A stretch of DNA of 63,714 nt, the filler included, from Catajapyx aquilonaris (Eukaryota), in assembly GCA_000934665.2 (NCBI GenBank). It is 2 parts of 2 records of this genome, joined end to end, with 100 filler letters (N's around TTAATTAATTAA, not from the genome) between each part and the next. Parts side by side here need not be neighbours in the genome. Positions count along the whole stretch, not along the records: positions 1 to 31,754 come from JYFJ02004491.1; 1 more part is not named here. One strand, given 5' to 3'. Made by a program: the position numbers and the translations under genes. Each line of letters starts with the position of its first letter. Position 1 is the stretch's first letter. Shown piece after piece: positions 521 through 62,704 of this stretch. The notes under the pieces were generated by a model, which saw nothing but the letters and a program-made list of their open reading frames with translations, was not told where the DNA came from and made no database searches.

Positions 521-864
521 AAACGTTGATGAGACGGGGTCTGAGGTCATCAGGTGATGACCCGACTTCCGCTCACTTGCAAAAGATCGTGACGAGGGGG
601 CAATGTAAGTAAGGTTGGTGGTTAGACCAACTTTAGTGCTTCAATCATTTCAAATGAGACGCCCAAAACAACACTGTTCATAAACAACCATGTCATTTAT
701 TTAATTAATATCTACTTTCATACATACGTCACATAAAAATCCAACAACACTAATCCCTTCTTCCGCAGTCCCAACTAAAGGGCCGCAGTCATCTAGCTGT
801 ATCAATGAAGGGCCACTGGACCACCCCGTCCCCTTCTGGGTCACAACTAACTCACGGTCATGCC

Positions 865-1398
865 TGGGTTTCCTGGACGTGCGATAGGCTTATGGTGGAA
901 GTTCTTCCGGTGTCCTCTTCTTCTTTGGCTGGTTCCGGCTGGTTTGGCTCAACTCGTAGCTTTTCGACTTCACTCACTGCTGCCTCTCTCCAACTCTCAT
1001 TTTTTTGAAATTTAGCCGCTGCTTATGTAGTGAGTTTAACTATCGGTCTTCGGTCAGCTTGGTTGCTTGTCGCATTCCAGTGCTCCATTGTGTAGTCCGA
1101 TAGGACGCTTTCCTTGGATTAACGCCTCCTCACCAACAATAGTATCGGTGGTTTTAATTATTTCAATGTCCTTACATTCTTCTTGGGGTGGGCGCAACTC
1201 GAAGGACAATCAGCTTATCTCCTGAGCAACGCTCCCGTAGTTTGGACATTTTAGTTGAATCTCGTCGTGAGGGCCTTTTGTGAACAATGCCTTTACATTC
1301 CGAAGAAATTCCTTAAATTCCTGATCCCTTCTTTGACTTTTGCAAATGCCACCTTACATGCGCCCTCTCTTAACAAATGAGGACCCTTATACCCCCTG
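865..1398 (-). repeat. High-identity copy of accessory ORF 'Z' region (duplicate of ~10713-11235)
   Basis: Near-identical DNA over ~530 bp. Confidence 0.9.
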
Positions 1399-1544
1399 TA
1401 TAAGCCAAAAATGGTCATAAGATTGTCTTGTCCCAAGGTAGCGAATTGATCTCTATGTTCAGACGTTTGACTCCCAAAAGAATATTTCCAACATCACTCC
1501 AGCCAAATTACAAAACTTAGAGTATCTACATGATTGAAACAAGG

Positions 1545-1910
1545 AGAACCTTGGTGTTGTGGCGGGTTTCTGGCCCGCCCACAAAAATAAAACGGGGGAA
1601 TTACTTGGTAACTGGTCCCTAGCCGAAATGGTTTAAACAACTATCCAGGACAGCACGCTGCCCTAATAAGTCGACCCAACCCACAAAAGCAAAAATAAAC
1701 CACCCGTTGTGACTTGCCAGCCTAATCCGAATAACCCCAGGTAGAATAGACCCATGAAATTTCAGAGGCCAAATTCGCCTACTTATTTTTCCCCACACTC
1801 CAGATCCTCGCGTGGTTCAGAATTGAGAGACCACGGGAGTCTGTGAAGTGCGGCTGACAAGTCGCCTTTTCAGGCTCGTTCCCAAAATTGCGACTATGGC
1901 CCACAGCTGT
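1545..1910 (-). ncRNA. Conserved structured cis-RNA inside an LTR element, copy A
   Basis: Homologous to 19005-19365; several helices with compensatory changes; G-U wobbles form only on the minus strand. Confidence 0.7.
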
Positions 1911-3302: not shown

Positions 3303-3969
3303 TGTGACGTGATTAAGTCGTACACAACAAATGTGGGTCCACTGAGTAACTGGTTTATTCACAAGGCAAACGTAAAAATAACAAAACATGAACGGGTCAG
3401 AGGATAGCTCAAGTATAAGGAGAGAAAGAGAGGTGTAAGGATCGGCCAGTCACCGGCTAGGGCCGCCGGCAAAAAGGCCTTGAACAATCGTGGCTCTACG
3501 GTTTAAATAGTCGGGGTGAAGAAACCTTGCATGATGGGATGAATCAAAAAAAGGGAAGGGTAAGAGGACAGAGAGCAAGGCATGATGGATATGGTGGGGA
3601 GAATACATTGATATGTACATGTGAAATGAACCTTGAAACAATGCGATGACTCTATGACGCACTATACTGCTGGGATACGTCGTAAATAAACAAAATCAAA
3701 GTGACCATGAACTGAGATTCGTGACAGTTCAAGAAAGTCAAAACAATTAATAAAATGATGGATCCGGCGATATCATCACGGAGCCGTGTGTGGCTATGTA
3801 TTCCCCAAGACGGAGTTGCATCCACGGTTGTGGGGCGGTAATTGGTGCTGGGAGAGTGTAAGTTACTACCGGGTATCTTGGTTGAGAATAATCTTCCAGG
3901 AAAGGAGGAAGAGGTGTGAAGGAAGTCATGATGTATGATCGAAGGAGGACAGAGGACTGATTGGCCACA
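3303..3969 (-). mobile_element. LTR (3' boundary firm, 5' boundary tentative)
   Basis: Ends GTCACA before the PBS; minus-strand AATAAA (~3355) and TATTTAAA (~3505) sit as in the other LTRs; TGTGGCC at 3969 is a candidate start. Confidence 0.6.
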
Positions 3970-3984
3970 TCCCGGCGTATGCAT

Positions 3985-5029
3985 ACGTGCGTATGAGATC
4001 AAAATTATTCGCTTCTCCCTGCAGGGGAATGGAAATGAACAGTCTGACCTTCGATTTCCAAACTGTTAGTTGAACAAGACATTGTCTGTAGAGTTCTCTT
4101 TGCTCCCCCGCTGTATCGGATACGACAAAAGATAGGCCTTTTGGCAAAACTGCCGAAATTTGATATATTACTTCGGAAAGCAAATCAGGGGGTACCAATG
4201 CCGGATGTAAAACACCCACGCTTGCCTGTTGAACTGCGGGTAACAAAAACGCCAGTGCATGTCTCAACTGTCCTATGACCGAATGTAACATACGAGTGCA
4301 CTTCGTTAAAGCCACATTGGTCAGGAAAGTAGACACATACTGGTTATACAAATTTATAAATATGTCGTCCACGTGAGCTGCTAATTCTGAAAGCTGATTG
4401 GCCACCTTATTAAGCGCCAAAGTATTATTCACCACCTGCGCGTTCAGCTGGTTGAGCACGGTCAACTGCAATTTTTGAGCATGTATGAGCTTATTCGTCG
4501 ACTGACGGAGAGTGTCAATTTCCGTATTCACTTTATTTAGATCCGATTGCGTTGCGGTCCCAAAAACAAACTGTAAAATTTGACCACCGATGTCCATCAG
4601 ACCACGTTTGGTCCGGGACGGTCCTCTATTCATGCCCAAGAATTTCTCCAGCTGCTTATATTCCTCCTGTACGAGGTTCATTTCATCAGTCAAAAATTCC
4701 AGTTCCTGTGCAAACTGGCTTCGTACCACTTGAAACCAGATGGGTTTGTAAATTTCTATCTGATTGACCTCCGGGAGGGAGTCATTACAAACATCACCGT
4801 GTGAGCGCAGTAAATTGCTAAGCTGGGAAATCTGAGTGGACACATTCCACAGTTGCTCATTCAGAGGAGCAAAGTCTAAGTCCAAAACTACATCCCAGCT
4901 GTTGTCCGTGTTAATGAATTGTCCTATTTTGACGAATAGAACTCCGGAATTCTGAAGTGATCCTGGAACGGGGTCTTGGGTTCGTATCGCCAGAATCCGC
5001 AGTAGGCAGGTAATCATCAGGAACCACAT
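3985..5029 (-). CDS. env: Errantivirus-type env / baculovirus F-like fusion glycoprotein, C-terminally truncated
   Basis: Signal peptide MWFLMITCLL; furin site RTKR; fusion peptide GLMDIGGQILQFVFGTAT; heptad repeat; upstream pyrimidine tract + CAG acceptor at ~5053. Confidence 0.9.
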
Positions 5030-5969
5030 GTTGATTCCCTTTTCTTTTCTTGCTGAAAAAGAACACACTTATGCTAACATGGATTATTCATGCATTCCTC
5101 GAGTCTTCTACGTTGCTCCATGTGGGAACTGCCTTACATATTGATTCTTCATCTCTTCACATATGCCCCCCTAAGGAAAATGACCACACTTATACCCATG
5201 TATAAGGTCATCATTTTTTTTCTGAAGTGTCTCAGAAGTCGTGTCATCAACTAAACGTAATTAACACAAGACGGTTGACGTTAAAGTTTTCCGATAGCCA
5301 AACCACCAAGAAAAGATACCACAAGTATTCACAGTATATAGTTTATTGCGTATGTGTACACAGGCAAAGGGGTTGCCTGTTTTAAACAGTATTAAAAAGA
5401 TAACAAACTTGGGGCTACTTACACAAGTTGGAGCTTCCTGTAGAGTCGTCCTGGAGAGAGAGCCCAAGAGAGGCGGAGGACGCTTTATATAGGGACCGTT
5501 TGCCCTTCAGAACAAGGAAATCCACGCGTGTTACATAATTAACCTTGGATATGCAAAAGCCAAGATGGACGGTACATCCGATGTACCTGCAAAACTTAGT
5601 TATATAAAGGTGACCTCTGTCCGCCCTTGAACAATACTAGAAGAGTACTAACTCACGCGTGTGCAAATGCTACGTACAGAAACAAACATGGCGCCCTCCC
5701 CGACAATTCACTTCCCTCTCCGGAAGAAATTATGGCCAGCGCCATTTCTCCTTTCACACTCATGGATAAACTGACAAAATTGAACATCTCAAATAACACT
5801 GGGAGAGAAAACTCGCACACCAAAGGAACAATAATCAAAAAATCCAAAAGAAGAGCAGAAGAATACAAGACATGACCGTGAAGGCAACCTTTTTCACTTC
5901 TTCTGTTTGGGCTCCCGGACCTTCCAGACCCTTCGTGGACCGGGCTGCCGTCGGGTCCCATAGGGGCGC

Positions 5970-6716
5970 TCAGTATGGTCCCGGAACCTCTTCTGCATCC
6001 CGGGAAGTGGGGTTCTCAGCTCGTGTGAGGACGACGGGGGGCACCCCTGTCGCGACCTCCTCCAAAGCTCCAAATTCAGTCAAGAAGTTGTCGTCGATGG
6101 ACTCCTCGAAGTCGGAACAGCTGCTCACTGGTGACCACCCGGGTTGCGGCGTCTCCTCGGTTGGACCCCGGGTCATCGGAGCGTCCCCACTGCCGGTTGC
6201 TGTAGGGGCTTCGTGGCTGCCGGCGGGTGGTTCGGTGGCGTCCTGGCTGCTGGCAGTCAGTAGGCCTTGGCGCCAGGGCTGTACCTGGATTTTTGCTTCC
6301 GGGGGCAGCCACCGCCAATCTGCTATCCAATTGCTGGCAACCCTCATCACCAACATTCCTCCATGGTACCCGTCCGGGGAGATCACTATCGACCCATGTG
6401 GCACCACGTGCCCTCCCAGTTGTAACGCGGTCGGGGACTGCACATTCCCCGCGGCGGGCGGCGGCAGAATGTACGTCATTACTGGGCCCTGTTCAGACGA
6501 GTAGTCCTCGTAAATAGGAAACAGGTACCGGGATGAAAACGGTAGGTTCAGGTCCATTTCGGGTACTCTTGGGTACTCGATCAAAGAAACAGTGGAGGAC
6601 TTTGCTGGAGGGTGACTTAGAACCAACTGTTCAAAGTATCGCTGGGCGATTCTCACGGGGCGTACGCAGAAGTGATTAGTACGACAAAAAGTCCAACCGC
6701 CTCCATCAACTGTCAC
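5970..6716 (-). CDS. Unknown accessory ORF 'W' with acidic/Pro-rich tail
   Basis: 248-aa ORF; core EDYS..PVMTYILP..L.LG....HGS..ISPD also occurs at 3747-3968. Confidence 0.55.
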   Translation of the reverse strand: MTVDGGGWTFCRTNHFCVRPVRIAQRYFEQLVLSHPPAKSSTVSLIEYPRVPEMDLNLPFSSRYLFPIYEDYSSEQGPVMTYILPPPAAGNVQSPTALQLGGHVVPHGSIVISPDGYHGGMLVMRVASNWIADWRWLPPEAKIQVQPWRQGLLTASSQDATEPPAGSHEAPTATGSGDAPMTRGPTEETPQPGWSPVSSCSDFEESIDDNFLTEFGALEEVATGVPPVVLTRAENPTSRDAEEVPGPY

Positions 6717-6852
6717 CTTGAAGATGCTGCATTCGTAATAATGTAATTTTACAAATGGCCAGAAGATCGAATGACCATCAACGGTTGTCTAGTGACAATC
6801 GTACGTGGTGGCCGACATCTTGGACCGGAGTCGTATTCCACTTTGCACATCA

Positions 6853-8355: not shown

Positions 8356-8880
8356 CTACACTTGCATGGTACAGGTTATTTGGATGATTCTATGAGTATC
8401 CAATGCGGCCGGAGGGTGCACATATCTGCACTCCACGCCTCTGGGGCAGATGCCCAGGAGATAGTCTCGGCATATCTCTGTTTGATCTGGTTTTTGAGGA
8501 GCCTTGTTTGCTCTTTTCGACATCGTGAAGGTATCCGACAAGCTCTTCAGATTTGCTCTGCACTTCGTGATGCAAAAACCCTGGCGTTACGCTTCCTCCT
8601 CTTCCTGCCCGGAGGAGGGCTCCAAAGAGGCACTCCTTGTCGTTCATCGCCTCCCAGTCTGCCTCCTGCCACTCATCCCGGTCTTCTTCTTCCTCCCAGT
8701 CCCTGAAGTCCTCCTCCGGATCACTCCAGTGTGGGACTTCCTCTTCTGGGTTTTCCAGGTCAACGGCCCCCACTCGATGTCTATTTGGTTGTCACATTCC
8801 GGACTTGGTCCGTCAGCCGGAAGACGACCTTCGCTGTCCTCTTTGTTCTTGTGTCGGCGTTGGGTTTTCAACCAACGATA
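8356..8880 (-). pseudogene. Acidic Trp-rich accessory ORF fragment followed by a CCCH zinc finger
   Basis: HWSDPEEDFRDW..WEAMNDKECLFGALLRAG matches 11783-12301; CRDYLLGICPRGVECRYVH = C-x7-C-x5-C-x3-H. Confidence 0.7.
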
Positions 8881-9728: not shown

Positions 9729-10205
9729 CTAATCAGGGATATGACTCCTTACTAGACCACGGGGTGATCTACTCCGAGGCGCGTCCTCCTCATCTTCCGG
9801 CTCCACCAAGAGCCTGGCGAACCAAAGCTCGTAGATGCGGCCCGGAAATAATGCCTTCTTGACCACTCCTCTTCTTGCTGTTGTCTGCCAACGAGTAGAC
9901 GGTGCCAACACCCACTTTGGGTCCTCCCCAAAAACGTTGACTAGTTGTCGCCAGGACCTTGCGGTCCCTGTCTCTAACTCCAGGTGCAGGCCCTTATGAC
10001 TGGTTCTTAGTCCCGTCCACCCCTTAATGGGCCCCCAGAGGCGGATTTGGATGTCCACAGTCGCACCTGTCGTGCCTTCCCTGGCTCTGATGGTCAGCCT
10101 TGATCCCTGCAGTTGTATCTCTGGTCGTTCAGGCTCGCTGGCGAAGATCTCTAGCACCAAGACTTTGCCGAATTGGCGCCAGCTGATCAGGTGAGAGCTG
10201 CCCAT
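9729..10205 (-). CDS. p23/CS (HSP20-like) domain protein, copy 1
   Basis: ISWRQ..LVLEI..P.IQL..RL.IRA..LWGPI..LEL..W..L..P.WV matches the p23/HACD3/TDRD12 CS pattern; paralog at 14402-14827. Confidence 0.7.
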   Translation of the reverse strand: MGSSHLISWRQFGKVLVLEIFASEPERPEIQLQGSRLTIRAREGTTGATVDIQIRLWGPIKGWTGLRTSHKGLHLELETGTARSWRQLVNVFGEDPKWVLAPSTRWQTTARRGVVKKALFPGRIYELWFARLLVEPEDEEDAPRSRSPRGLVRSHIPD

Positions 10206-10514
10206 CTTGTGACTGTCGATGTTCTCCTGTCGTCCCTTTTCAAAACTACTGCCCGATAATGTCCAACTGACATTTGCGTGGCGTCTCACGGTTTTCTCTC
10301 TGTGATTTCCTTTTTACTACACTCTAACTGTATGTTTCCCTGAAACAAAGTCTCAACCTTTACTCTCGGTTGGACTAGACCGCCTACCCAGACTTGGTAG
10401 CTGTCTATTTTATTCCTTTGAGGTTGTCCCTGACTTCCTCTCTTGTGCTTTTTACTATGCACCTTCCTACGTAGGACTCCTTTTCACGTTTCCGCGACCT
10501 TTTCCCGGTTTTGC

Positions 10515-11430
10515 CTATGATTGGCTAACCTTGTGGTATCCCTGACGACACCTACTTAGATGCTGCGTGTCCTGTGACACCAGCTTGAAATTTCTCCGAA
10601 GACACGATTTACTTTTCTGCCTCTTCTGGGCATGCTCATTGCTTCTTTGCTCGCTGTCCCATCTTTGGTCATGCGCGTGCCTAATGACCCAACTAAGCGC
10701 GCATGCCGTACGTGTTTCCTGGACGTGCGATAGGCTGATGGTGGAAGTTCTTCCGGTGTCCTCTTCTCCTTTGGCTGGTTCCGGCTGGTTTGGCTCAACT
10801 CGTAGCTTTTCGACTTCACTCACTACTGTCTCTCTCCAACCCCCCTTCTTGAAATTTAGTGAGTTTAACTATCGGTCGTCGGTCAGCTTGGTTGCTTGTC
10901 GCATTCCATTCCAGTGCTCCATTGTGTAGTCCGATAGGACGCTTTCCTTGGATTAACGCCTCCTCACCAACAATAGTATCGGTGGTTTTAATTATTTCAA
11001 TGTCCTTACATTCTTCTTGGGGAGGGCGCAACTCGAAGGACAATCAGCTTATCTCCTGAGCAACGCTCCTGTAGTTTGGACATTTTAGTTGAATCTCGTC
11101 GTGAGGGCCTTTTGTGAACAATGCCTTTACATTCCGAAGAAATTCCTTAAATTCCTGATCCCTTCTTTGAATTTTGCAATTGCCACCTTACATACGCCCT
11201 CTCTTGACAAATGAGGACCCTTATACCCGCTGTAAGGTCCTTCATTTCCTTTCGTCCCTCGATGAAACGTAGCTCTCCAGTCCATTCTTGACGGCACGAC
11301 CAGTGAGTCGACCACGCCCAGATCGCCACTGGATGTATTAGGAATTTCCTGACGTTTACCTCAAATTTGCAAGAAATTCCTCCAGCTTTTGAGGACGGAG
11401 TGATCAAATTGGTACCCCAATGAACAGGCT
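10515..11430 (-). pseudogene. Frameshifted unknown accessory ORF 'Z'
   Basis: Overlapping minus-strand ORF pieces; duplicated at 865-1398. Confidence 0.45.
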
Positions 11431-11782: not shown

Positions 11783-12301
11783 CTAATGTATAATCGCTAA
11801 TTTTATTAACTCCCCTGTATTGTCACAATATTGACACTTTTTAAGTCCGGGGCCCGATGAGAATTTTTTTTTTGTATATCGGTACCCCGGACAATTTTGT
11901 TCTAGACAATATTTTCGAAACTCTTCATATTCCTCCACCACGCTGTCGAATTGGGCTTTTTCGTGACCCGACACGTGGAGGACCCAAGCGGTCGCCCAGC
12001 TGCCGGCCCGGAGGAGGGCTCCGAAGAGACACTGCTTGTCGTTCATGGCTTCCCAGTCCGTCTCCACCCATTCGTCTCGGGCGTCTTCCTCCTCCCACTC
12101 CCGGTAGTCCTCTTCCGGGTCGCTCCAGTGCTGGACTTCCTCGTCAGGATTGTCCAGGCCCACGGTCCCCTGCCCGATTTCTTCCTCGTTATCTCTTGGT
12201 TCGACAGCCGGACGACGACCGTCGCGGTCCTCTCCGTTTTTGTCTCCCCTGCCCAATTTTCCAAAGAAATAAGCAAGAATGCCTAACGTGATCACCAACA
12301 T
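11783..12301 (-). CDS. TM-anchored acidic protein with His/Cys C-terminal domain (accessory family 'T')
   Basis: Kozak ACCATG at 12301; hydrophobic N-terminus; TATATAAAA at 12354-12362; homologs at 8390, 13930, 15560 and 25164. Confidence 0.65.
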   Translation of the reverse strand: MLVITLGILAYFFGKLGRGDKNGEDRDGRRPAVEPRDNEEEIGQGTVGLDNPDEEVQHWSDPEEDYREWEEEDARDEWVETDWEAMNDKQCLFGALLRAGSWATAWVLHVSGHEKAQFDSVVEEYEEFRKYCLEQNCPGYRYTKKKFSSGPGLKKCQYCDNTGELIKLAIIH

Positions 12302-14866: not shown

Positions 14867-15559
14867 GGGGTTGCTTCCTTCCTTGTGCTTATGCCACCCT
14901 TCGGTTCGTGGTGATTTATAAGTCAAAACACTAATTATTATCTGCACTATTGGTCGTTTGATTACCCTTACACATGCATTTTCGCAATTCCACATTGCGC
15001 AGTCTGGTCCTTTCTCGCAATGGCGCAAGTCATGCTCACTCTACGAACGCCTGTCTGTCTTTCCTAACTGCAAATAACTCGGACTTCGGAGTGATTTCTA
15101 CGATTACTTTGGAATTATTTATTCTAGTGGCCATGGGATTGCTCGGTACAATTCAAAAGAATCTGCATCTGCCTTCAGTGGAATTGACAGAACACGACGA
15201 GCAGTTTCGTCCATCGGTATCATTAACCCTTTTGCCCATCGGTAATACAAGGGTATTGACTCTTTATCAGCTGGTATTGCCAGATGTAACCCGTTCGGTA
15301 GATTGGGTAATATCTGGTGTAAATAGTGGGGTTTCCGGGAAAAACCCTCGAGCCTTGTACATCTTTATTTCCGGGTACTATAACAACATACATTTCATAC
15401 ATTGAGGGTCCCGAAGGCCCTAACGAAATCATCATTGTTTTACATATACCAGAATCAACACCCCTATTATGTATAACAACATCTAATGTTCTCTGGTTAG
15501 TTTCCACACTTTATAACTTCATCTGTATACTGTTTTTCACTCTGGGGTGACACTAATAC

Positions 15560-16935: not shown

Positions 16936-17989
16936 AGATTTTAGTTTTAGTGTGCAGAGTGTGACCGTTCGGTACGGTCGGTTCGATGGGTGCGTGGGAT
17001 TAGAACAACGAACAGTTAACAACAAGTAATATATATTTGATAACAATAACAGTCTACATTACTGGGGGTAACCCCCATACAATTGTGCTACATCGGATAG
17101 ACCATGCTATATTACCCTAACCGCACTAACTCCCTGTCCTGGCTTGCAGCCTCTTTTTATTGGGAGTTGGGCGGTTGTCACGTTGGAATTGTTTGTGTGT
17201 GTGTGTTCATCACCTATTGTTTTCACTATCTCATATTGTGCCATTACCTATGCACAATATGGTTGCGTTAGTTATGTCTACGGTGACAACACCCCCTTTC
17301 TTAATCCAAACGTCACGTTTAGATGCTTGTATATTACCTATGACTGACCTCACACACAACAATGTAATGGATGACAGATTTCCTCCGTATGATGCTGCCA
17401 GGAAGTAAAAACCTTATTTTTACGCAAGACTGAATTATATATGACAACGGGGTGTGTGGGATCGTTCTGCTGTGGACGGCGGCAGTGGCATCCAGCTCCT
17501 TGTATATGCTCCAGCTGACATCCCGCGGCGTTTGCTGAGGTAACTTGGCATATGAGGCTATGGTCTTGGTCTCCAGCGTCGAATTTGCTGCCGGTGGCCT
17601 TCTTGTGCTCCACCGTCGATGTGTGTGGTGTGTCAACGACCGCTGTCCTGTTGCCGGTTTCTTCATCCTCCTTGTTTCCCATCAGCCTATGTCTGCCTCC
17701 TCTTACAGCGTGCACATGCCCATTGTCCGCTTCTGTCCTTTGACTGCTCCCCATCCTTTCTCCTAGGTCGGGTGTTGTACAGGATGTTGCCATACATAAG
17801 ACAGTCATGTATTCGTTATTAACCAAACTATCTTCCTGAGAACATATACCATAATCATTTTAAATTCAATCACTCGTCCCCTTGTGGGATGTCATATTAA
17901 GTTGTTTTTTTCCGACTGGTGTACTACTCAACGTAGTATCTCGTTATCATGTCCCAAAAATAAATAAAGTAAACAAAATCACATAAAAC

Positions 17990-18375
17990 AATTCACATAC
18001 GTGGGTTCATCATGAGCCTCTCCCCTTAACGTCGGTGATCTACCTAGCTCAGGTTCTTCATCCCCCGCACGCAACCCATCACAACTGATGGTGAGACTTA
18101 GCTCGTCCGGTACATTGTAAAGCAAATGTCCATTTCTACCTAAATTAATGAATATAGGGTCGTATTTACCTATCAAAATCTTCAGGCATATGCTTGCCTC
18201 AAGTCCATATCCCGAAATCAAGGAAAACAGGCATGATACTCTCGGTTTGGAATATACTGCACGAGGTCTAGTGCATACCCTAGGTTGCCCACTCTCACAC
18301 TCGTTTAAGTCCCCTTCTTCCAGCATCATGTATGACTGCTTATCCGCCGACACGGCCATAATTATATGGATGGTC
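17990..18375 (-). pseudogene. env: env (F-like) Cys-rich ectodomain fragment
   Basis: MLEEGDLNEC....RVC....VY.....SCL parallels 26822-27060. Confidence 0.7.
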
Positions 18376-18844
18376 AATTTTAAATGCTACAGAAATGTTC
18401 ATTATTGGTACCGGCCACTGTATTGCTCTTTATAGCGTATATCGTTCACTGTCTTTCTGTAACGGTATCGTTATGTCGAACCCTCCGCGTAATTAAGGAC
18501 TTACCTCAATTATCTGGAAGAGAACGAAAGTTGTGGCAAACGCAGGAAAAAGTTGAAATGAATATGGACACGACTCACGTGTTTTTAAATATTGGTTATT
18601 ATTGACACTTGTTGTCCAATGACAACTGAATTTACACCGTAGTGCGCGGTTTTCGTGCCTCTCTTACTGTTGCTGACTTTTTCCATGGCGGGTAGCTTCC
18701 CGTCTGACCAGGGGAAGGTCACGGCCTCTGGTACATCTGGTCGTCAAACTGATCTGAATTGTTGGTCTGTCGTCTCCCCGTGCCACCTGCTCAAGGCTAT
18801 TTACTTTCCATGTTAAACGTTACTCGACATTACAACATGCGTAT

Positions 18845-18869
18845 TTTGGGGGCATCACATCCGCCACCC
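18845..18869 (-). promoter_or_regulatory. Candidate PPT and 3' LTR start
   Basis: Minus strand GGGTGGCGGA then TGTGATG at 18859. Confidence 0.4.
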
Positions 18870-19004
18870 AGTACCGTACGAAATGCTAAGTGGCGAGGCA
18901 ATTTAACTTTTCGTCAAGTGAAAACCTGAGATCGTTACGTTAAGACTATCCTTAAGGCAAGTACAACCCACCAAAAGTTTGTACAAAAATTACACGTTGA
19001 AGCA

Positions 19005-19365
19005 AGGAGCACCTTGTGGTTGTGTCCGGTTTCTGGCCGAACACTAAAAATAATGTGAGGGGAATTTCCGGTTGGCTCTTCCCTGAGCCGAAATTGTGAA
19101 ATAACTACACAAAAGCAGCACGCTGCTATGGTAAGTTAACCCAACCCGTGAGAGTAAAAACAACCCACCCGTTGTGGCTTGCCAGCCTAATCAAATACCC
19201 CCAGGTAGACTCCGGAGATCAGAGACGAATTCGCCGAAATTTGGCCCACACACCCCAGATCCTCGCGTGATCCAAAAGTAAGGATCACGGGATTCTGTGG
19301 GATGCCTGCTGACAAGCTGCCTTTTCAGGCTTGGTACCGAAATCTGTTTCCATGGCCCACAACTG
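19005..19365 (-). ncRNA. Conserved structured cis-RNA, copy B
   Basis: Homolog of 1545-1910 with covarying helices. Confidence 0.7.
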
Positions 19366-20221
19366 TGCTTGCGGCCGATGATGGCAAAAACTTGTTGTAA
19401 ACACAGTACAACCTATGCGCCTAGTACGGCTCCGAGTTACGTGCGTGTCATTAGCAATACCCTGCTTACATTAATGCGCAGTTCACGAAGGAATTAAACA
19501 CTTGCAAACAAGGGACGCCAAATTACGTCCTGTCCCAAACCTAGTCCGCGACATGTAGACTCGAAAATAGGGGTTGACGTAACCAATTTGAAAGCTATGT
19601 CTGGCTCCAATGAGCACCAGGCAATAACTTTTCCGTTGAAACACTGGTCACTAACATGCAACGCCGGACGGGTTGCTCACTGTCAAGGGGCAGTGGAGCC
19701 CTGATGGAAAAAATGCAGCAGCACACTGCTCCTTTTTCTCGACCGTTCGAGGTCGTGTGACGTCACTCACTTCACATGTGTTCGCACAGGTGATCACTGA
19801 GTAAATGTTGTTCTCTCCTCTTTCTCTCGAGGAAGGAACGCTTGCACTTTTTATGATGCACAGTTTCACGTATAACCAAGACTTGTCCGTAATTACGATG
19901 AGAAACCCAACTTACGCTAAAAAATATGTTGATGAACATAATGACTGTACGACACTTGACCTGTGTCATGACACTGACACTGAATGGCTGCTTAGAGAAT
20001 TCATGAGCGAGAAGGCATAATATCTGACACGCTGCTGGTGCCTGTGAACGCAATACGCGATGTGAAATGCAAAGAGTCCCACTTGGACCCATCGATAGCA
20101 GGCGGAAGCTGCCAATTATATTCGATTTAAGTAGACTGTCTCGAGAATGAAGTTACGAATGGTTGTGGTGTTAGGGCGAGCCCCAAGGAGGAGGCTCAAA
20201 GAGAAGGAGGGAATGACCACA

Positions 20222-20680
20222 TCAGTCGTCAGGGGCTGGAAGGTTCCCATCATCACCGGAGCTCTTCACAGCACAGGGATAGGAGCGTTGGGTGGGATTA
20301 TCGTACCCAAAGAGGGCAGGAAAACAGAAAGTATGAGAGTTTGGGATCCGGTACGGTACTAGTGGGGTACCACAGGGAGGCCCGTCTTGCATGGAAGATG
20401 ACGCTTTCGATAATCTGAGCCTTCCATGGTCGGACCATTTCAATCCCCTGGACGGAACCTGGATGAGGAAAACTTGGTGGAGGTGGCGCCAAGGTGGGGC
20501 ACCGGGATGTGTGAAAGTCAAAATTGGGGGGAGAGCTTGTTCACACAAGGCTAGAGCATAACTCCCTTCCAGCCGGACCTCCATCCCTCTCAGACAAGGG
20601 TAGGTTTCATCCATTCTGGGGATGCTGGGAGTCCATCGTTCTGGACACACTTGCCGCAATGTTTTGGTCCGCAGGTCGGA
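20222..20680 (-). CDS. Unknown ORF in the TE mosaic
   Basis: Open frame with protein-like composition; no motif recognised. Confidence 0.3.
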   Translation of the reverse strand, partial: SDLRTKTLRQVCPERWTPSIPRMDETYPCLRGMEVRLEGSYALALCEQALPPILTFTHPGAPPWRHLHQVFLIQVPSRGLKWSDHGRLRLSKASSSMQDGPPCGTPLVPYRIPNSHTFCFPALFGYDNPTQRSYPCAVKSSGDDGNLPAPDD

Positions 20681-21151
20681 CATGTGGCAAGCAGTGAAAG
20701 TGCTTACAATTTCACAAACGATTACATTTAAAATGCACAAACTTTAAAAAGTTGCAAAATATAAACAGTACAACTGTACAAGTGCAATGTCAGTACAATA
20801 TAAAAAATAACTGGGTGTTAAATGAGATCATGATCCATGCATCATGACTTATTAACCTAATGCAATATATGAAAAGAGACCAGCCTTAAACCGAAATATT
20901 CTATCAATCAAGCATATCTTAGCATATTTAATAATTCTCATCACCACCATCATCAGCAGAATCTGACTCCACATCACTTGGTTGGGTCACATTCCGTAAG
21001 GAGAGGACTTCCTGATCGAAATTTCTGTCCTGCTTATGTGACTGGTTGGCCAAAGTACTTAATCTACAGGATCTGAGCTTAAGAGAAGTCTCCTAAAAAG
21101 GTCTTCATTTGTCATCATCCGGCAACTTTTGCGTGTATGATGCGTCATGTA

Positions 21152-21348: not shown

Positions 21349-23299
21349 TGTCACCATCCGACAAGAGCAGGGGATGACATAAGACACAAAAGGGTTCGTT
21401 CTATGACTCTGTTTAATGATCGATGGGATTTACATTCAGTAACAACGGTGGATAAGAAGTAGGTGAGGTGAGAGGTAGAAGGTGGGGTGGCCAGTCCTCT
21501 TGGGATATTCTCCCAAAGAGAAAAAGGCCTCGACTGAGAGATGGAATGGGTTTATAAAGGTAAAGGAAACCGCAAGGCATTGTGGGCGGGATAGGATTGT
21601 TCCAGAAGAGTCGTAGAGGAAAGTGAAGGATGACGTAATGTGAGGATGATATATACATGAAAAAATCTTAACGGTCACACACCCCCGGACCAAGCACGAC
21701 AAACAGAAACATTCAAAAACCAGGGGCGTCAAAACAAAATTTTCTTCTCGTATTAGCTGCTCGTAAGCCTGTAAGGATTGAGGTATGAGGCAATGAACAG
21801 ACAAGCTTGCAATGAACCATTGACGGATGAGGAGGCGCGTATATATTATGATCCATCGCGATGCATGATGGGTAGGGTAGGACATCCTTCCTCTATGGCC
21901 TCACAATCGCGGTTAGGTCGGGCCCGCCGAAAGTGATGCACTTGACCTTGCGGGGAAAAGTCGTTAAATGCACTACTACGGTACAGCAAATGAGGGAACC
22001 CCCCTGCCAGGGAAACACATCACAGCTGATAACTGTTTAAACGACACCCGCACCCAAGGAAGGACAGTCCAATCATAACTTGACCCGATTGGCCGACAAT
22101 CCGGGGTCTAAAGAAAATGGGTCACAGTTTTTTTTTTCACCATCTTCCACTTTCGCTTCCACTCGCACACCATGCATGGCTGCCTCCAATCGGATGATGA
22201 TATGTCCGATCCGTAAGTAGATATGTACACCGGAGTCCAAATTCTCTTCTTTCACTCACAGGGGGTTGGTGAGATGGGTACACCAAATGGGGTTAATACA
22301 CGTCCGGCGTTAGATATCAGGCAGGAAAAAGAAAAAAGAAGGGGCCCCGCTCCGTAGTAGAGTTTGTGTAGAGGGGCTCCATCCAAACATAACCATCCAC
22401 CTTTACGGGTCACTTCACGGAATGTCCTGACTCTGATGTAACAGGGTGACTCGTAATTTCAGGTCTCTCAACCTCCCAGTCTTCATTCTTTTCTTCACAG
22501 AAAGGGGCTACACATCCACCAGGGAATAAATTAGGACAAGGATAAGGTTAAGGTTACGTGCGGACGGGGATTGATGTCCACAGTGGGGTTCTTGCGACAT
22601 GCAAGCCTCCGGATAAATAGGGTGTGAGGTAAGGTTTTCTAGGAGGGGAAAAAGGAACTCTCAACGTAAGGATAAGGAGAGACGGTACGTGGGAAAAACA
22701 CGTTACCGAAAGTGTTCCAAGATTGTTTCCAATCGGAGCACAAGTCGACCTGATGGGTACTAGATACGTACACCGAGTGGTCGGGGAAAGGATTCATAAG
22801 CACGTAGCTCAATAAGAAAAGGATTTTAGGTCAGGAGGGAAAAGTCGTCGTATAGGACAGGGAAATGCTACATTGCAGATATGTCCATCACAGACGAGTG
22901 AAATACACTGAACACATCCCAAACGATACAGAGGTAAGAGTAAAAATCCCACTTCTGACTCCACTTTATGTCACCATCCGACAAGAGCAGGGGATGACAT
23001 AAGACACAAAAGGGTTCGCTCCATGACTCTGTTTAATGATCGATGGGATTTACATTCAGTAACAACGGTGGATGAGAAGTAGGTGAGGTGAGAGGTAGAA
23101 GGTGGGGTGGCCAGTCCTCTTGGGATATTCTCCCAAAGAGAAAAAGGCCTCGACTGAGAGATGGAATGGGTTTATATAGGTAAAGGAAACCGCAAGGCAT
23201 TGTGGGCGGGATAGGATTGTTCCAGAAGAGTCGTAGAGGAAAGTGAAGGATGACGTAATGTGAGGATGATATATACATGAAAAAATCTTAACGGTCACA
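21349..23299 (-). mobile_element. Intact non-autonomous mini-LTR retrotransposon (TRIM-like)
   Basis: 331-bp LTRs at 21349-21679 and 22969-23299 (about 4 differences seen); TSD AGTG; Leu PBS 22946-22963; G-rich PPT after 21679. Confidence 0.95.
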
Positions 23300-26800: not shown

Positions 26801-27066
26801 GGCACCGAATTGACATCGGCGTCAGTTTTGGGACAGAAAACAACCACTCGCCTCTTTTGATTCGATAAAAAATTGGGTTGTGTGTTTGATAATTTTTGCA
26901 TCACATAAATCATCATCTACTGGTAAACGTTTTAGGGTGTTGTATGCACAATTTTGAATGGGGGAGCTTTTTATCGGTCCACTAGGTTTGCAAATTCGTT
27001 TAGGGTTTAATGTACAGTGAGACAGATCTTCCTCTGTCATTTCCAAAAAGTAAATCTGATTTGTAG

Positions 27067-29449
27067 TGTGACCTCATTAGGGAACACACATGAAAAAACG
27101 TGGGATCAGTCGAGACAGTTTTAATAGCCAGAAAAAGGGAACAGGGTATAACGGATGAACACAAGCGCCCACCCGGGCTGATCAGTACAATCCCCGCAAC
27201 GGGGAGAGACCAAAAAGCCTTGATACAAATACAAGAGCGGTTTATATAGATCGGGGTATGGGAAGTGCATGATGGGATATCCCCGTCTCTACTAGTCAGA
27301 CGTCAGGCTAAAATGCACTTGGGTAGGAAAATGGGTATGCGTACATCAAGGAGAAATGGGATCGGAACGACAGACTATAATGTGCCCAAGGACAACAGTG
27401 TATAATGGGCATATGTAACAGAATTCTTGACGGACATACAATACAGATAGAGAAGTTACTCAACCGGGATTTAGGCATGACACCTGTTCCTCAAAGTAAA
27501 AGGGTCACACACCTCCGCCGTGAGAACTCTCCCCGGGTTTCATCTGACTGAGGTTTCAATTTTCTTACGATAATGGGGATGGCATTTATACAGGTGAAAA
27601 AGGGTGAGAGGGGTGAAATTGTTCTTTACCAATGTTGGTCCATTAAACTTTGACATGCGCGTGAAACACCACTGTACTCTTCAGCCAAATGTCATGAAAA
27701 TTAAACACATAAAACGGACTTGGCCTCATTCTCAATCAACACGAGAAACAACATTAAAAAAAACCGTGACACACAACATCTGGTGCACAACACCGTAGTT
27801 CGATGTGGTACTGGGTGGCTATTCACTCACTCGTGCACATGTCAGGGAAGTCCAAAAAAATGCAGGAGTCGTCCTCTTTGTGGTCACTGGCGTCATCTAT
27901 GGAAATCCGCTGACGGTACCATCAGAGCTGTTCAGTTCGACCAGCCGTCGGGATGGTTCTCGGCGCCGGCGGCGTCGTCGTGCCCCTCCACTATGGGTCA
28001 AGGTCCATGATGGGTTCAACACCACCGGGATGATCGGCGTCTCAAAGTATTCACGAGGTGATTGGTCGGTCTCCGGGGCACATCCCAGCAGACACCGTCG
28101 GTGAAGGTCAATTTGACAATGGTATTCAGTCAAAAGGTCGTTACCGATGATAACCGGGGTTATGGATGACCGGATTACGTAGAACGGATGGTGAAGCAAG
28201 GAAGTCCCAATTAATACCGGGAGTATCACCTCTTCACGAGGTGGGATGCAACGTCCATCATACATCACCAAAAAAGCTCCTGGGGTTGGCCTTGAAGGGG
28301 GCCGATCGATACCAGTCAGCACTGCCAAAGCGCCTGCCGCTATGGTTGAAGCTCCTGTGGCTCCTAACAGTAGTGCTTTCCACTCCCGGCCGTATATGGT
28401 GATGACAATGGAGGAGGCGGGACATTCACGGACGCCCTCGGTCAAAAGGGACTGGCTGGTGGCCATCTGGTCGGTAGTCACTCTGATGATCCACTTGGCG
28501 ATGGGATGGTTGTCGTACTCCAACTCCACCTTGCAAACGAATAGACGCCAGGTCCCTCCACATGAGGGTTAAATAAGGGGTGGTAGATATCCCAACATGC
28601 ATTAGATCAACTCTGCTTTAACCTTGTGACGACACGGGTTCAAACCGCATGTCAAAAAAGGCAATCTAAAGGGAGATGCATCTCCCCATTGCACCAAGGT
28701 ATCCATGTAACGAATACACAGTAGGGCATACCCCCACCGTGTGTGGGGGTGGCCCCAAAACGTGATTAGCTCGTATACAGGGCAGAACGACGGGACACAA
28801 AAAAAGGGACCCCCTCCAGGAATTTTCCAAGGGGTACAAATGTCCGTGTTGACCTTTACAAATATGCATTTAAAATTGGGAATCACGTCATCCTCCTTCA
28901 CCACGCACAAAAGAGGCATGTGTGGACTGGGACCGTCCCGTAGGGAACGAGGGTCATGTCCTTCTGGCACTGTAAGACTATTTTGGATCCCACTTCTGAC
29001 ACCATTTGTGTGACCTCATTAGGGAACACATGAAAAAACGTGGGATCAGTCGAGACAGTTTTAATAGCCAGAAAAAGGGAACAGGGTATAACGGATGAAC
29101 GCAAGCGCCCACCCGGGCTGATCAGTACAATCCCCGCAACGGGGAGAGACCAAAAAGCCTTGATACAAATACAAGAGAGGTTTATATAGATCGGGGTATG
29201 GGAAGTGCATGATGGGATATCCTCGTCTCCACTAGTCAGACGTCAGGCTAAAATGCACTTGGGTAGGAAAATGGGTATGCGTACATCAAGGAGAAATGGG
29301 GTCGGAACGACAGACTATAATGTGCCCAAGGACAACAGTGTATAATGGGCATATGTAACAGAATTCTTGACAGACATACAATACAGATAGAGAAGTTACT
29401 CAACCGGGATTTATGCATGACACCTGTTCCTCAAAGTAAAAGGGTCACA
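27067..29449 (-). mobile_element. Intact non-autonomous LTR element carrying a degenerate retropepsin ORF
   Basis: LTRs at 27067-27509 and 29009-29449 (~98% identical by eye); TSD GTAG; Leu PBS 28987-29004. Confidence 0.95.
27897..28529 (-). CDS. Retropepsin-like ORF lacking the catalytic Asp
   Basis: ITIYGREWKALLLGATGASTI..HPFYVI..PVIIGNDLL..HCQID. Confidence 0.7.
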   Translation of the reverse strand: MELEYDNHPIAKWIIRVTTDQMATSQSLLTEGVRECPASSIVITIYGREWKALLLGATGASTIAAGALAVLTGIDRPPSRPTPGAFLVMYDGRCIPPREEVILPVLIGTSLLHHPFYVIRSSITPVIIGNDLLTEYHCQIDLHRRCLLGCAPETDQSPREYFETPIIPVVLNPSWTLTHSGGARRRRRRREPSRRLVELNSSDGTVSGFP

Positions 29450-30491
29450 GTAGTAAGTGCCAAGTACGGATATTTTGGTGTAACCACAAATGCAGTCTCT
29501 GAATTGTTAATGGGGGTCGGCCAAGACAATACCTTGTATAACTCAAAATATTGCGTAGAATCTCGCAACGGAATGTCTATTAATAATCTAGTGGCTCCAG
29601 GAATGGCCACTGCTATCAATTTTCCAAACTGATAATAGTCATACAAAGTAGATTTGTCTAATGGCACCACAAAGGACAATTGACTTGGAAGTTTCTTAAT
29701 GAGCTGTATCAAAATTGCATTTAGTTGTGATGGTGGCAAAATGTATGTGGGTATTGACCCCTGGCTCATAACATCTATGGAGTGCAATATTTTGTTGTAC
29801 AAATCGTTTATGACTCCTAAATTAACTTCGAAAGCCCTAAACAATGTGTCCGTGTTTACAATGGCTAAAATTTGGGTTCCCATCTCACTGAATTGTTTAC
29901 TAACTGTTTGTACTAACTGTAAGTCTTTCATATCTGTTGTCAAGGTGTAAGTAATATTTCTGAGTGAGTTTAATGCTAATTCATTTTCTTTGGTCCTCCC
30001 TGCAATCTGTTCAATTATTGTGGCTTGCTCATCGAAAATGTGGAAAGTTCCTTTTTGAGTCGACACCAAGTGATCTATGCGCTTGTTAATATCCTTCTGA
30101 GTAGAGAGGCCAAACAAAAACCCTAGTGTTGCTCCCACAAACGTTAATATTTTTAACCCTCTTTTCTTCCATTGCTGTAATGGCAATGTGAAAGTGTCCT
30201 TTAATTCGCTGAATCTACATCTGAGACCACGTGTTTCATTCATTAGGCGTGACAACTCTGTCTCTTTCAAATAATAGATCTCAACTCCTGTGACCCCAAG
30301 CTTAGCCAAAAATTCATTCCATTTTTCAAAGAAATTATTGGTAGTTTTGAAAACTTTTGTAGCTCTGCCCCTAGCGTACTGATTAGTTCCATATAAGGTT
30401 CAAATTTAAAGTCCATGATTAGGCGCCATTGATTCTCAGAAACCAAGAATCCTTCATCTTGCGGTATGTACATAGACTCTAGCTTCCGGAT

Positions 30492-31390
30492 TCAATCTCG
30501 GTGCAGGTGCACGATTAGTGGTTGGGTTTCCAGTAACAGGTGGGGCCCCTCTTTGGTGAACTTAGGCTGTGAAGGCCCCCGCTCATCTACCCACGCATCC
30601 TCATAGAAAACCTGAGGCATCTCCTCTTCCTCCAAGTCCTCACCTGAATCCTCAATGTGTTTATTTCCGGAGTCGGCAGGTGAGTCCCACTCAACCTGCC
30701 CTTGTACCGGGTCAGACACAGGTTCCTTCTCCGGATAGGGTGCTCTAGGGTAATACTTTCTCAACCTGTCAACATGTACTACCTGAGTTTTCTTACCATT
30801 TAGCTGCTTGATTTCAAAATTAACTGGGGTTGTCTGTTTAATAATACGGTGTACTTCCTTCCAATGCTTATCCAGCTTTGGTGACCCCCCTGGCTTAGTT
30901 AAGGGATGGTACAACAATAGTAAATCCCCTACTTTCAAATTCTTCTGCTTAATTATCTTGTCATGATATTTCTTCTGACTGGCAAAAGCTTCAGCTATAT
31001 GTTCTCTAGCTGATTTGTACGCATTCTGTAGCCGTAACAACAGCTCTTCCTTGTAATTTTCTCATACCGCGTAATTGATTCTAGTAGTTCCTAGAAACGT
31101 ATCAAACGGCAGTTCAGGGTCACGGCCAAACAATAGGAAAAAGGGTGTCTCCAGAGTTGAGGCGTGCACTGCTGTGTTGTAAGCCATGGCGACCAACTTC
31201 AGTTGTTCGTCCCCAGTTCTCTGGTCCTCGTCGATGTAATGGCTAATGGGAAATCATTTTCACCAAATTTCCGTTAAATCCCACTTGTCCATTTGCGGCT
31301 GCGTAGTATGCAGAAATCTGGCAATAATTTGCTAATGTCCTTGAGTAACTGTGAAGTTCGATCCATGATCGGTGATAAACGTCCTTGGCA
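30492..31390 (-). pseudogene. Ty3/Gypsy integrase core + C-terminus
   Basis: ITDHGSNF, AYNTAVHAST..TPF..FGRDP, QKKYHD..VGDL..KL..HW..VVHVDRLRKY. Confidence 0.9.
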
Positions 31391-31754: not shown

Positions 31755-31854
31755 NNNNNNNNNNNNNNNNNNNNNNNNNNNNNNNNNNNNNNNNNNNNTT
31801 AATTAATTAANNNNNNNNNNNNNNNNNNNNNNNNNNNNNNNNNNNNNNNNNNNN
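31755..31854. other. Scaffold gap with artificial TTAATTAATTAA spacer
   Basis: N runs flanking a 12-mer; 100 bp in total. Confidence 0.95.
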
Positions 31855-44100: not shown

Positions 44101-47003
44101 TACACACACACAGAGGAATCTACTGGGGGGGTCAGTTTGGGTTGGCCGCCTTCGGAACCAACCCAAACCGGCGTTTCCTTGGAAGGCGTTAGCAGACTAG
44201 GATTCGGATGGCTGGCAGCGGTAGATCCCTGTGGAGGGGCGGCAGGGCCAAATTCCCCGCATGGCGGAGATTTTTATATTAAACAACCGCATTGTATGGG
44301 GTTATCCTAAGGTCAAAATAAGAGTGGGGGTCTCCTGCAGGCATAGTTCCAGTGCTGCCGGAAATGGGACTGAGGAGATGATGGCACTTGGAAGCAACTC
44401 TGTGATTGGCAAAGGCAGCAGCATATAGCGTATCACTTTCGTGTGGCCCGTCTTGCTCTTACCCGCCGGGGTTTGGCAGCTTGGAGGTGCGGTGGGATTG
44501 GCACCACTTTCCGACAGTGGGGGAAGAGGGAGGCGGGAGTAAAATAAGAAAAAAGAGAGGGCAACGAGGAGAGAGGAAAGATGTGTGTGCAGCGGGTGTG
44601 AGCAGAGAGTGTGGGTAGTGGGTGTACCGAGAGGGAATTAGACAGCAATAAAACACGAGTTGATTGAAAGAGTTGTGTGGATAGCATTTACTGTAATAAG
44701 CACATGCCTGCAGGGTTACACACAAATGAGTCTTCACCTTCTACTATTTTGGCCACTCACCCCGCGGGATCAGGATTTGGGTAAGCCTGGAAAACACATG
44801 CATAAAATTGCATCATAATATGCACCTAATATTTTTTAAAGCGTCACACTGACTTACACGGAGAACTTGTCTCTGAATGCTTGGATGTAGTCTGGACTGA
44901 ATGCAGGTAGGGATGCGTCTCCGCCGTATCCTGACAGAAGTTCGCACACGTTGTCCATGTGTTCTTTCTTGTTTGGTTCCTTAAAACAGGCTTCCATACC
45001 CTGGAAGAAGCAAAAGTGTGCAAAATAATGCCAACTTGTAAAAGAATACTTGACTCAGCCAGATCTATACTCACAAAAACCCGAAAGCAATCAACCATAA
45101 ATATCATAGAGAGCATCTGTAACATTGCCACAATACACCATGTGATCCATTGTCAAGAACAAATATTTATTCAACGCAAATGAAGCACCCAGAATGAAAA
45201 TGCGCATAACTCCAAAATAACAAATTTTTCAGGGGAACGTTTTTTCTGCCTCCTGTTGTTAGCACCTAAATAAGTGAAACGTGGCTTCACATGGTCAAGG
45301 ACTATGTTATAAGCTGCTACTTCCACCACTGACAGACTGGTTTCTCCACATGGGATAGGCGCCAAATCAAGATATATCATGTGGAGTTAGGTTCCTTTCA
45401 TTCTTGATGAACACTTTTATCGAGGTAACTGTACACTCCTGCTGTGGATTATGGATAAATGCATGTTAATCAATTTCATTCTGTATTGCTTTGTTGGTGC
45501 AGCATTCATTCCCACAGGCATCAAAAAATACATCATATATACATCAAATTCCTTACAATACAGACACACTGATTTACTAATCAGAATCTGAGTCATTGTC
45601 ACCGTCAAGAGACTTTAATGACCTGATCAATCGGTCAGCTTCAGCTGATTTGAGGTACAGTTTCAGAACATCTGTCAATTTTGCAGACTTGACTGGAATG
45701 AATTCCTTGTACAATGCTTCCGTAGGAAATGAGACACATGTTGCTTTCCTCTGTCCAACATATGACTGCCACAGAGAACCAGACTAGACTTTGTTTGTGA
45801 TACCCTGACCTGAAACTTGTGCACCTTTGAGTATTCCAGAATCCAGAATCTTGCGCTTTGAAATCAGAAGCAGTGACAGACCATGTAAAAATCGGAGCAA
45901 AATGCCCTTTGAAATCATGGAAATCATGACCATTCATGATAATGACATCAAACTTTGCCCCAACCAACATTTTGGACAAATGACTATCGCCATGCACCAG
46001 GCCACTGAGAATGAAAGCAACCATACTCCCCTCAAAAAATTAGGTCGGGGTTTTGGCCCCTTCTTATCCCGTGTTCCGTGTGGAATTAGGTAAGGGTGTT
46101 TCCTCTCTGCAGCTGTTGCACCTAGGCTTGAGGTACCCTTTGCGATCATAAACAGAATTTTTTATTATTATTATTATTTAGTTATGCGCGTTTTCTTTCT
46201 GGGTGCTTCAAATGTTACCTTACAGGCATTATGTATGCATTTTGTCTTTTTCCAAGGGGTCCTCAGTACACATTACACAATAATCTATTAACAGTACTAT
46301 CAGTATTAACACTGGCAATGCAAAACAACAAAATCTAAAACAGGATTCATTGATTATGCTAAAAATACTTAAGAAAATAATATTACATCAAAAAATTAAT
46401 ATTTCCATTCTCACATTTGTTACACCACACAGGCTGTTATCATGACAGCTCCCTACAACATGGTCATAATACTTCCATGCAAAATTGTGTTACCACATGC
46501 AACCTTGACCCACAATGCACAGTGGTCCGGAAGTGATTGGGACCCCTAATTCACACAGAATTTTTTTTAAATTTCTTATTCTACATCTAACCCCTCTAAA
46601 TAAACAGGAAATAAATAAAAGGACCTTCTACGTATTACTGCAACTTGCAGACAAAAGTGAAACATCATCTCTCTCCAAATATTAGACCTTGTCCTGCCAC
46701 ATCCGTTGGTGCATGAACTTTATTTCATACTAGTGTCTGTCAAAACCATTAGCATATAAAACTACGATGACATTCATTGCTCTACAGACTCAAGAGGCAA
46801 AAATGTGCACACTGGTCCATGGACCACTGTGCCCCGGAGGGCAGCAACTGACATGATGTTACGAATCGTAGCTTCCATTTCAAATGGCGCTTTCCAAATC
46901 CCAGCATTTATGGACAAAGGATGGGGGCCATCCATAAATTACGTAACGCTGATTTTCAGGTTTTTGAACCCCCCCCCCCCCCCCCCCCATGTAACGCATA
47001 GTA

Positions 47004-62662: not shown

Positions 62663-62704
<42 letters not shown>

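Follow-up and report, generated by a model that had tools for sequence, protein, structure and literature searches.

A non-coding block of about 430 nt with an extensive predicted RNA fold was found in two diverged retroelement regions of Catajapyx aquilonaris (GCA_000934665.2), and from these two copies it stands, with reasonably good support, as a candidate new element of structured RNA in arthropod retroelements. The window, i.e. the whole stretch of DNA that was analysed (63,714 nt, positions 1–31,754 being JYFJ02004491.1), holds a cluster of decayed retroelements from an animal genome. Copy A of the block (432 nt) lies at 1527–1958 and copy B (423 nt) at 18991–19413, both on the minus strand. 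When compared with each other by blastn, the copies were 73.6% identical across 440 columns (E 6e-68) and the edges of the match were sharp. According to the self-comparison, the block is the sole strong nucleotide similarity between the two retroelement regions. The large RNA fold that the initial annotation had described as common to both regions was found again, in a block a little wider (1527–1958) than the proposed 1545–1910.

Each reading frame of the block, on both strands, contained 2–9 stops, none of the 11 gap runs in the alignment had a length that is a multiple of three, and the mismatches showed no 3-periodicity. A coding explanation of the conservation was rejected on these three grounds, in agreement with the initial annotation, which had seen no conserved ORF in the ~1 kb of weaker homology. 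The whole window was searched with Rfam 15 (4227 covariance models) at the gathering threshold of each family, and no match fell in the block, the only match being a tRNA at 47254–47310. At E≤10, a search of both copies with their flanks returned four unrelated matches of 13.7–22.9 bits, compared with gathering scores of 40–100. Since no Rfam score reached gathering level, known RNA families were rejected, and the novelty of the structure with respect to Rfam stands. A presumed resemblance of the block to 7SK or telomerase RNA was considered and had no Rfam support. The view of the block as a structured module, conserved and non-coding, that two diverged retroelement regions have in common is supported. 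The tRNA-like match itself (minus strand, 33.9 bits against a gathering score of 29) lies in a segment at 46998–47323 that is repeated with 75% identity at 62687–62988, and this repeat could be a tRNA-derived SINE.

Copy A lies within an element, here called element A, whose 3′ LTR (849–1400, minus strand, in element sense) is a direct repeat of its 5′ LTR (10691–11234, minus strand), with 514 of 561 positions (92%) identical. The env-like ORF of this element, an open frame of 380 aa at 3929–5068 (Pfam Baculo_F, E 4.9e-14), is on the minus strand, and the sense of element A is therefore minus. The encoded protein shares 26% amino acid identity with a second env-like ORF (29518–30165, within 29434–30399 on the minus strand). 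Used as a query, it gave a single distant match, to an ant F-like protein (E 1.4e-5), and no relative was found among viral contigs. The motifs ATTAAA and TATAAG occur in the LTR in minus orientation only, and the bins covering the LTR had a depth of about 150–200. In element sense, the copy A block is situated between the env-like ORF and the 3′ LTR, 127 nt from the latter.

Of the 82 ORFs with a length of 110 aa or more, 42 were covered by the Pfam scans, as were all 76 minus-strand ORFs of 60–109 aa in the first 32.6 kb, and in these no gag, protease, RT or integrase was recognisable inside element A. With regard to the hallmarks of an errantivirus-type host, element A has the LTR pair (92%) and the Baculo_F env, with RT and integrase giving no match inside it. 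Integrase C-terminal domains were detected solely in the neighbouring fragments at 266–640 and 30495–31061, both on the minus strand. The ORFs at 5973–6788 and 9732–10313 of element A gave no usable family match (Pfam at E≤5), and ORF 20225–20743 had no relative among longer proteins. For element A, neither a canonical TG..CA LTR end nor a PBS, a PPT or a target-site duplication was seen on inspection by eye. According to contig depth, the interior segment 7441–9252 is a high-copy insert (depths summed over contigs reach about 6,600, compared with about 30 for single-copy sequence). Because of this insert, and because RT, protease, integrase and gag were not found, element A appears to be defective or composite, or it may be a non-autonomous env-carrying element.

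All recognisable retroelement ORFs in positions 1–31100 are on the minus strand. Apart from the integrase C-terminal and env-like frames already given, a weak env-like match (17982–18386, minus strand, E 0.006) was below the cut-off, and an env-like fragment was seen at 15122–15364 on the same strand. Such an accumulation of env-type elements in a single direction is reminiscent of flamenco-type piRNA clusters. Two near-identical direct-repeat pairs, at 21349–23299 (331 nt, 98.8%) and 27066–29449 (444 nt, 98%), have their members 1.6–1.9 kb apart and may represent short units bounded by LTRs, or LTRs arranged in tandem; the latter of the two pairs abuts the env-like ORF at 29434–30399. Beside the integrase fragment, positions 31755–31854 hold two N runs of 44 bases each, which are record-joining filler, and the element map is incomplete there.

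Sequencing depth was taken from contigs and unitigs of four DNA runs of one sample, placed at 80% likeness, a placement that would overlook an old family with copies differing by ~26%. Both copies of the block were at single-copy depth, copy A in a unitig at 1375–2756 (depth about 30) and copy B in contigs extending from 18830 or 18894 to about 19700. The unitigs spanning the two copies had depths of 25–36, and run X5 gave almost no cover over either block. Across the copy B block the depth was 37–47, compared with 160–240 in the bin at 18313–18916. The single-copy contigs at copy B end at 18830 (X3) or 18894 (X1, X2), and this depth step places an approximate unique-to-repeat boundary at 18830–18860, beyond which the sequence is repeated ~8-fold. 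Copy B lies about 135 nt from the boundary, a distance comparable to the 127 nt between copy A and its LTR, and we infer that the boundary is a candidate start of the 3′ LTR of copy B. The LTR of copy B stays at the level of a candidate because the repeat beside it has no partner in the window. The initial annotation had placed the structure in two LTR-element interiors, which holds for copy A with its LTR pair (92% identity) and is conjectural for copy B, as is the candidate PPT that it had placed beside this copy.

No third copy of the block was detected in the window. The next best nhmmer match had an E of 0.27, and a covariance model of the core domain (R1, 181 positions, filters off) gave as its next best match 64 nt at 13.7 bits (E 0.023), which was judged to be noise. 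Two conserved motifs of the block gave no matches in viral, metagenome and prokaryote-genome collections.

Beyond the block, patchy and faint collinear homology was detected by local alignment and word search on its 5′ side in element sense (A 1959–2430, B 19414–19930, minus strand). It consists of a 65-nt patch (A 2114–2050, B 19628–19559) with a local score of 22, compared with a mean of 14.7 and a maximum of 22 in shuffles, and of two exact words collinear with this patch, one a 13-mer (A 2382, B 19888) and the other an 11-mer (A 2422, B 19919). Blastn between the two regions at E≤10 found no match beyond the block, and nothing else passed E 0.26. On the other side, a local-alignment test showed no similarity between A and B in the spacer toward the LTR or in the LTR itself. 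The weaker homology of ~1 kb that had been reported earlier was thus recovered as three faint collinear islands reaching ~2430 and ~19930, but it is patchy and invisible to blastn at E≤10. A block that is the sole strong similarity, together with faint islands upstream of it, fits common descent with the block changing much more slowly than its surroundings, and the patchy homology favours the interpretation that the whole 3′ region of A and B may descend from a common ancestor.

The RNAalifold consensus of the minus strand contained 97 common pairs in 16 helices over 437 columns (−97.7 kcal/mol). Twelve of these pairs were changed on both sides, and a further 11 carried a wobble-compatible change on one side. 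When each copy was folded singly, copy A reached an MFE z-score of −4.1 in minus orientation and −2.4 in plus orientation, and copy B one of −2.8 in each. The predicted layout is built around a core domain of ~165 nt that is closed by a 10-bp long-range helix, with a GAAA-loop hairpin beside this helix and a long bulged hairpin inside it. In copy A the core (1699–1878, minus strand), which corresponds to helices 4–9, comprises the GAAA-loop hairpin (1875–1864) and the long-range helix (1862–1853 with 1721–1712), and the interior enclosed by the long-range helix consists of the extended hairpin (1851–1795) and a variable arm. The core of copy B (19164–19333, minus strand) has its GAAA hairpin at 19330–19319, its long-range helix at 19317–19308 with 19186–19177, and its extended hairpin at 19305–19250. 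The isolated cores of both copies folded into the same predicted architecture, with z-scores of −4.5 (A) and −3.2 (B), and in neither case was any of 200 shuffles as stable.

Three elements were predicted on the 3′ side of the core, all on the minus strand: a hairpin with a CGUG loop, a stem whose CCAGAAA loop is invariant and, at the end, a small hairpin. The CGUG-loop hairpin (helix 12; A 1638–1673, B 19102–19138) has 14 pairs, with three two-side and two one-side changes, and the CCAGAAA-loop stem (helix 15; A 1561–1579, B 19024–19042) has six pairs. The 3′-terminal hairpin (helix 16; A 1540–1553, B 19003–19016) is an invariant stem of five pairs, and since these never vary it is mute on covariation. 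At the 5′ end of the block there are two hairpins, helix 1 (A 1957–1940, B 19412–19394) and helix 2 (A 1922–1898, B 19376–19354), each with one pair that is changed on both sides.

The helices singled out in the initial annotation were all recovered. The stem that closes the identical CCAGAAA loop (A 1579–1574 with 1566–1561, B 19042–19037 with 19029–19024) contains two two-side changes and one C-G to U-G change. The hairpin GGCAG-CGUG-CUGUC of copy A, which corresponds to AGCAG-CGUG-CUGCU in copy B, is borne by an additional outer stem, which holds more such double changes and brings the number in the whole helix to three. The 10-bp long-range helix showed the A-U to G-C swap that had been claimed for it; it spans alignment columns 99–250, has a central U-G in both copies and was found in both the MFE and the centroid folds of each. 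The remaining helix, CGTGGT/ACCACG in one copy and CGTGATCC/GGATCACG in the other, has one G-C to A-U swap. Both copies also contain the 6-mer CACAAC at two places, columns 251–256 and 403–408 (A 1711–1706 and 1561–1556). It begins at the final paired base of the long-range helix in the first case and of the CCAGAAA-loop stem in the second, running 3′ from there, and this repeated word could be a candidate site of protein binding. An informal inspection of the A/B alignment by eye found no kissing-loop palindromes and no GNRA-receptor motif.

Several controls were used to judge whether the fold is kept beyond chance. Column shuffles within conservation classes gave a consensus energy of −59.9 ± 5.1 kcal/mol, compared with the observed −97.7, corresponding to a z-score of −7.3 with none of 100 shuffles reaching the observed value on either strand, and the SCI was 0.64, compared with 0.46 in the column shuffles (0 of 100). 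When the same differences were relocated neutrally over the whole alignment, consensus energies were −62 and −68, and relocation within bins of 12 or 24 columns, which preserves the local conservation pattern, gave −70 to −77 (z −3.5 to −4.4); in both designs none of 240 simulations reached the observed energy. Changed positions made up 35 of 194 paired columns (18%), compared with 76 of 224 unpaired columns (34%). The fold of copy A, projected on B, retained nine double changes compared with 3.9 expected (p 0.0075) and 100 pairs compared with 90.9 expected (p 0.016). The reverse projection, of the fold of copy B on A, gave seven double changes compared with 3.5 expected (p 0.06), and its pair retention was no better than expected (90 compared with 88.3, p 0.38).

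The same alifold pipeline found 7–8 compensatory pairs in neutral simulations, with averages of 7.7–7.8 under global relocation, compared with the 12 observed, and 12 double changes were reached by 17 of 240 simulations with global relocation and by 11 of 240 with local bins. When the positions of the differences were fixed and their identities permuted, there was no significant pairing bias, either in the pairs kept (p 0.21 and 0.80) or in the double changes (p 0.07 and 0.27). Sliding the partners by 1–3 columns left 0–2 double changes, a control that is biased because the structure was derived from these same sequences. The covariation reported in the initial annotation is thus borne out as far as the 12 two-side changes and the retention of a common fold are concerned (0 of 240), but the number of compensatory pairs, coming from two sequences, is on its own only borderline evidence (11 of 240). 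Taken together, the controls suggest that the differences between A and B were placed and chosen so that the common fold survives, beyond what regional conservation would bring about.

An explanation that is unlikely, yet deserves to be taken seriously, is that the block is a neutral relic, i.e. the least decayed piece of a common ancestor, whose inherited hairpins were kept by chance or through uneven mutation rates. At 74% identity most ancestral hairpins persist by descent alone, and 34 of the 134 ungapped pairs of the copy A MFE fold are broken in B. The yield of 7–8 'compensatory' pairs under neutrality and the lack of a significant pairing bias in the substitution identities at fixed positions are also what such a relic would give. 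It is harder to reconcile with the local-relocation simulations, none of which matched the consensus energy although block-wise conservation was kept, and with the paired columns changing about half as often as the unpaired ones; the flanks, moreover, are nearly undetectably similar while the block keeps 74%. The sharp edges of the strong homology, and the dissimilarity of the LTR and of the block-adjacent spacer between A and B, would also suit a sequence from a third party, such as an old SINE- or MITE-like repeat or a captured host non-coding RNA, acquired independently at both places, and with contig placement at 80% likeness an old family that is ~26% diverged would escape notice. We regard this origin as distinctly unlikely, considering that faint collinear homology runs about 470 nt past one edge, that both copies have the same orientation and lie nearly equally far from an LTR or repeat boundary (127 nt and about 135 nt), and that neither a poly(A) tail nor a terminal inverted repeat or a tRNA-like head was seen at the block ends on inspection of the sequence. 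The block is also at single-copy depth and has no Rfam match, and a third copy was not found in the 64 kb of repeat-rich sequence.

The strand on which the fold would act was also considered. The initial annotation had stated that mismatches become G-U only on the minus strand; G-U pairs are indeed present in key helices on that strand, and the minus-strand consensus has 11–14 of them per copy. Nevertheless, a strand-neutral count gave 20 G-U-type and 14 A-C-type outcomes, which is not significant, and the conservation z-scores of the plus strand were equal to those of the minus strand, so the statement is not statistically established. The same observations, and the 10 double changes that plus-strand folds keep compared with about four expected, speak for a fold that acts in a plus-strand (antisense) transcript or, as single-stranded DNA, in a reverse-transcription intermediate near the putative PPT. 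This is nevertheless improbable, because on the plus strand the long-range helix would hold a central A-C mismatch in both copies, the consensus has 82 pairs in plus orientation compared with 97 in minus, and minus is also the sense of the env ORF and of the sole poly(A)-like and TATA-like motifs in the LTR. Reading the fold as RNA of the minus strand, i.e. in element sense, is favoured, since the long-range helix then has a central U-G in both copies, more consensus pairs are formed, the z-score of the copy A fold is better and the env ORF sets the element sense. An IRES or a self-cleaving ribozyme would be in keeping with a large, multi-helix, conserved fold, and Drosophila Idefix has an IRES in a long 5′ UTR (PMC5443660). 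Both are highly improbable here, given that nothing translatable lies 3′ of the block in element sense, where 127 nt (A) or about 135 nt (B) separate it from the LTR or repeat boundary, and that no self-cleaving family of Rfam matched even at E≤10. The location of the block in the 3′ part of the element, its ~430-nt multi-stem fold closed by a long-range helix, and the lack of an ORF behind it point instead to a cis-acting module of the full-length transcript, and on the modelled fold the chances that the block represents a new cis-acting module of structured RNA within the 3′ untranslated region of a retroelement appear evenly balanced.

Retroviruses must export intron-containing RNA from the nucleus. 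To our knowledge, the RNA signals that serve this export are known almost only from vertebrate viruses, and the solution adopted by arthropod env-type retroelements is poorly known. The MPMV-type CTE is one extended hairpin of ~160 nt, with two near-identical internal loops in two-fold symmetry, and binds NXF1/TAP, and the RmRE of MMTV and the RcRE of HERV-K are response elements akin to the HIV-1 RRE. For Cer1 of C. elegans, a protein factor for the RNA export problem was found only recently (PMC10309623). The CTE (referred to in PMC10309623 and PMC4829213) lets intron-containing full-length RNA exit the nucleus, and the copy A block resembles it in being structured and in lying between env and the 3′ LTR, a position that for copy B would follow from the candidate boundary. 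The block differs from the CTE in its length (~430 nt), its ~16 helices with multi-branch loops and its arthropod host. Furthermore, it has no two-fold repeat of an internal loop, the only repeated conserved word being CACAAC at columns 251 and 403, and it has no sequence or Rfam relation to the CTE.

Compared with RRE, RmRE and RcRE, the block is of similar size (350–500 nt) and is likewise multi-stem, closed by a long-range helix and located in the 3′ part of the genome; its 97 pairs over 437 columns and its 10-bp helix agree with the RRE/RmRE type in size and closing helix. Those elements, however, overlap env or U3 and need an element-encoded adaptor (Rev, Rem or Rec), whereas the block carries no coding signal and lies outside the LTR at a distance of 127 nt, and the other ORFs of element A match no family. 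Among the ORFs considered for such an adaptor, a CCCH zinc-finger ORF (8359–8586, minus strand, E 4.5e-8) lies in the high-copy repeat, just beside its densest part, and is probably part of a nested insert. The segment adjoining this ORF (8601–8855) has a 77%-identical copy at 12000–12246.

The SPRE acts post-transcriptionally from the 3′ UTR of env and syncytin genes that belong to endogenous retroviruses (PMC8579622). Like the block it is an RNA element directly 3′ of env, is common to different ERV families and raises expression, but it consists of short sequence motifs, is mammalian and has no large fold (PMC8579622). The 17-nt SPRE core had no match in the window with up to three mismatches. 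Idefix, a Drosophila element of errantivirus type, has a long structured 5′ UTR with an IRES and a Gag-binding switch (PMC5443660). Both this region and the block are long non-coding regulatory or putatively regulatory RNA regions of LTR elements of the env type, in an insect in the case of Idefix, but the Idefix region is in the 5′ leader ahead of gag, and the block is 3′-located with no ORF behind it (PMC5443660).

By analogy with these systems, post-transcriptional export or expression would be the likeliest mechanism for a cis-acting module at this site, a proposal that we make tentatively and with considerable doubt. On this proposal, a factor for export or expression would be brought by the fold to unspliced RNA that contains env. 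This factor could be a host protein, as for the CTE, or an element-encoded adaptor, as for the RRE or RmRE, and the RNA would then exit the nucleus, or be expressed, despite its retained splice sites. The next most likely job would be in packaging, dimerisation or reverse transcription next to the putative PPT. Of the functions suggested in the initial annotation, a cis element for export or packaging fits the site of copy A, as does one for expression, and an IRES and known ribozymes are disfavoured.

A bolder possibility, again drawn from analogy and to be regarded as unlikely, is that arthropod env-bearing retroelements carry an RRE-like system, in which a multi-stem response element of ~430 nt in the 3′ UTR is read by a host or element-encoded adaptor that brings about export or expression of unspliced RNA. 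If the block should prove to be a mere relic, the case would show how far 'covariation' readings from two sequences deserve trust. If the RRE-like reading is true, no large RNA fold for export or regulation would have been described before the block in endogenous retroviruses of invertebrates, and it has a sequence unrelated to CTE, RRE, RmRE or SPRE. The block is a concrete candidate for tests at the equivalent 3′ position, and its covariance model may serve for mining arthropod genomes.
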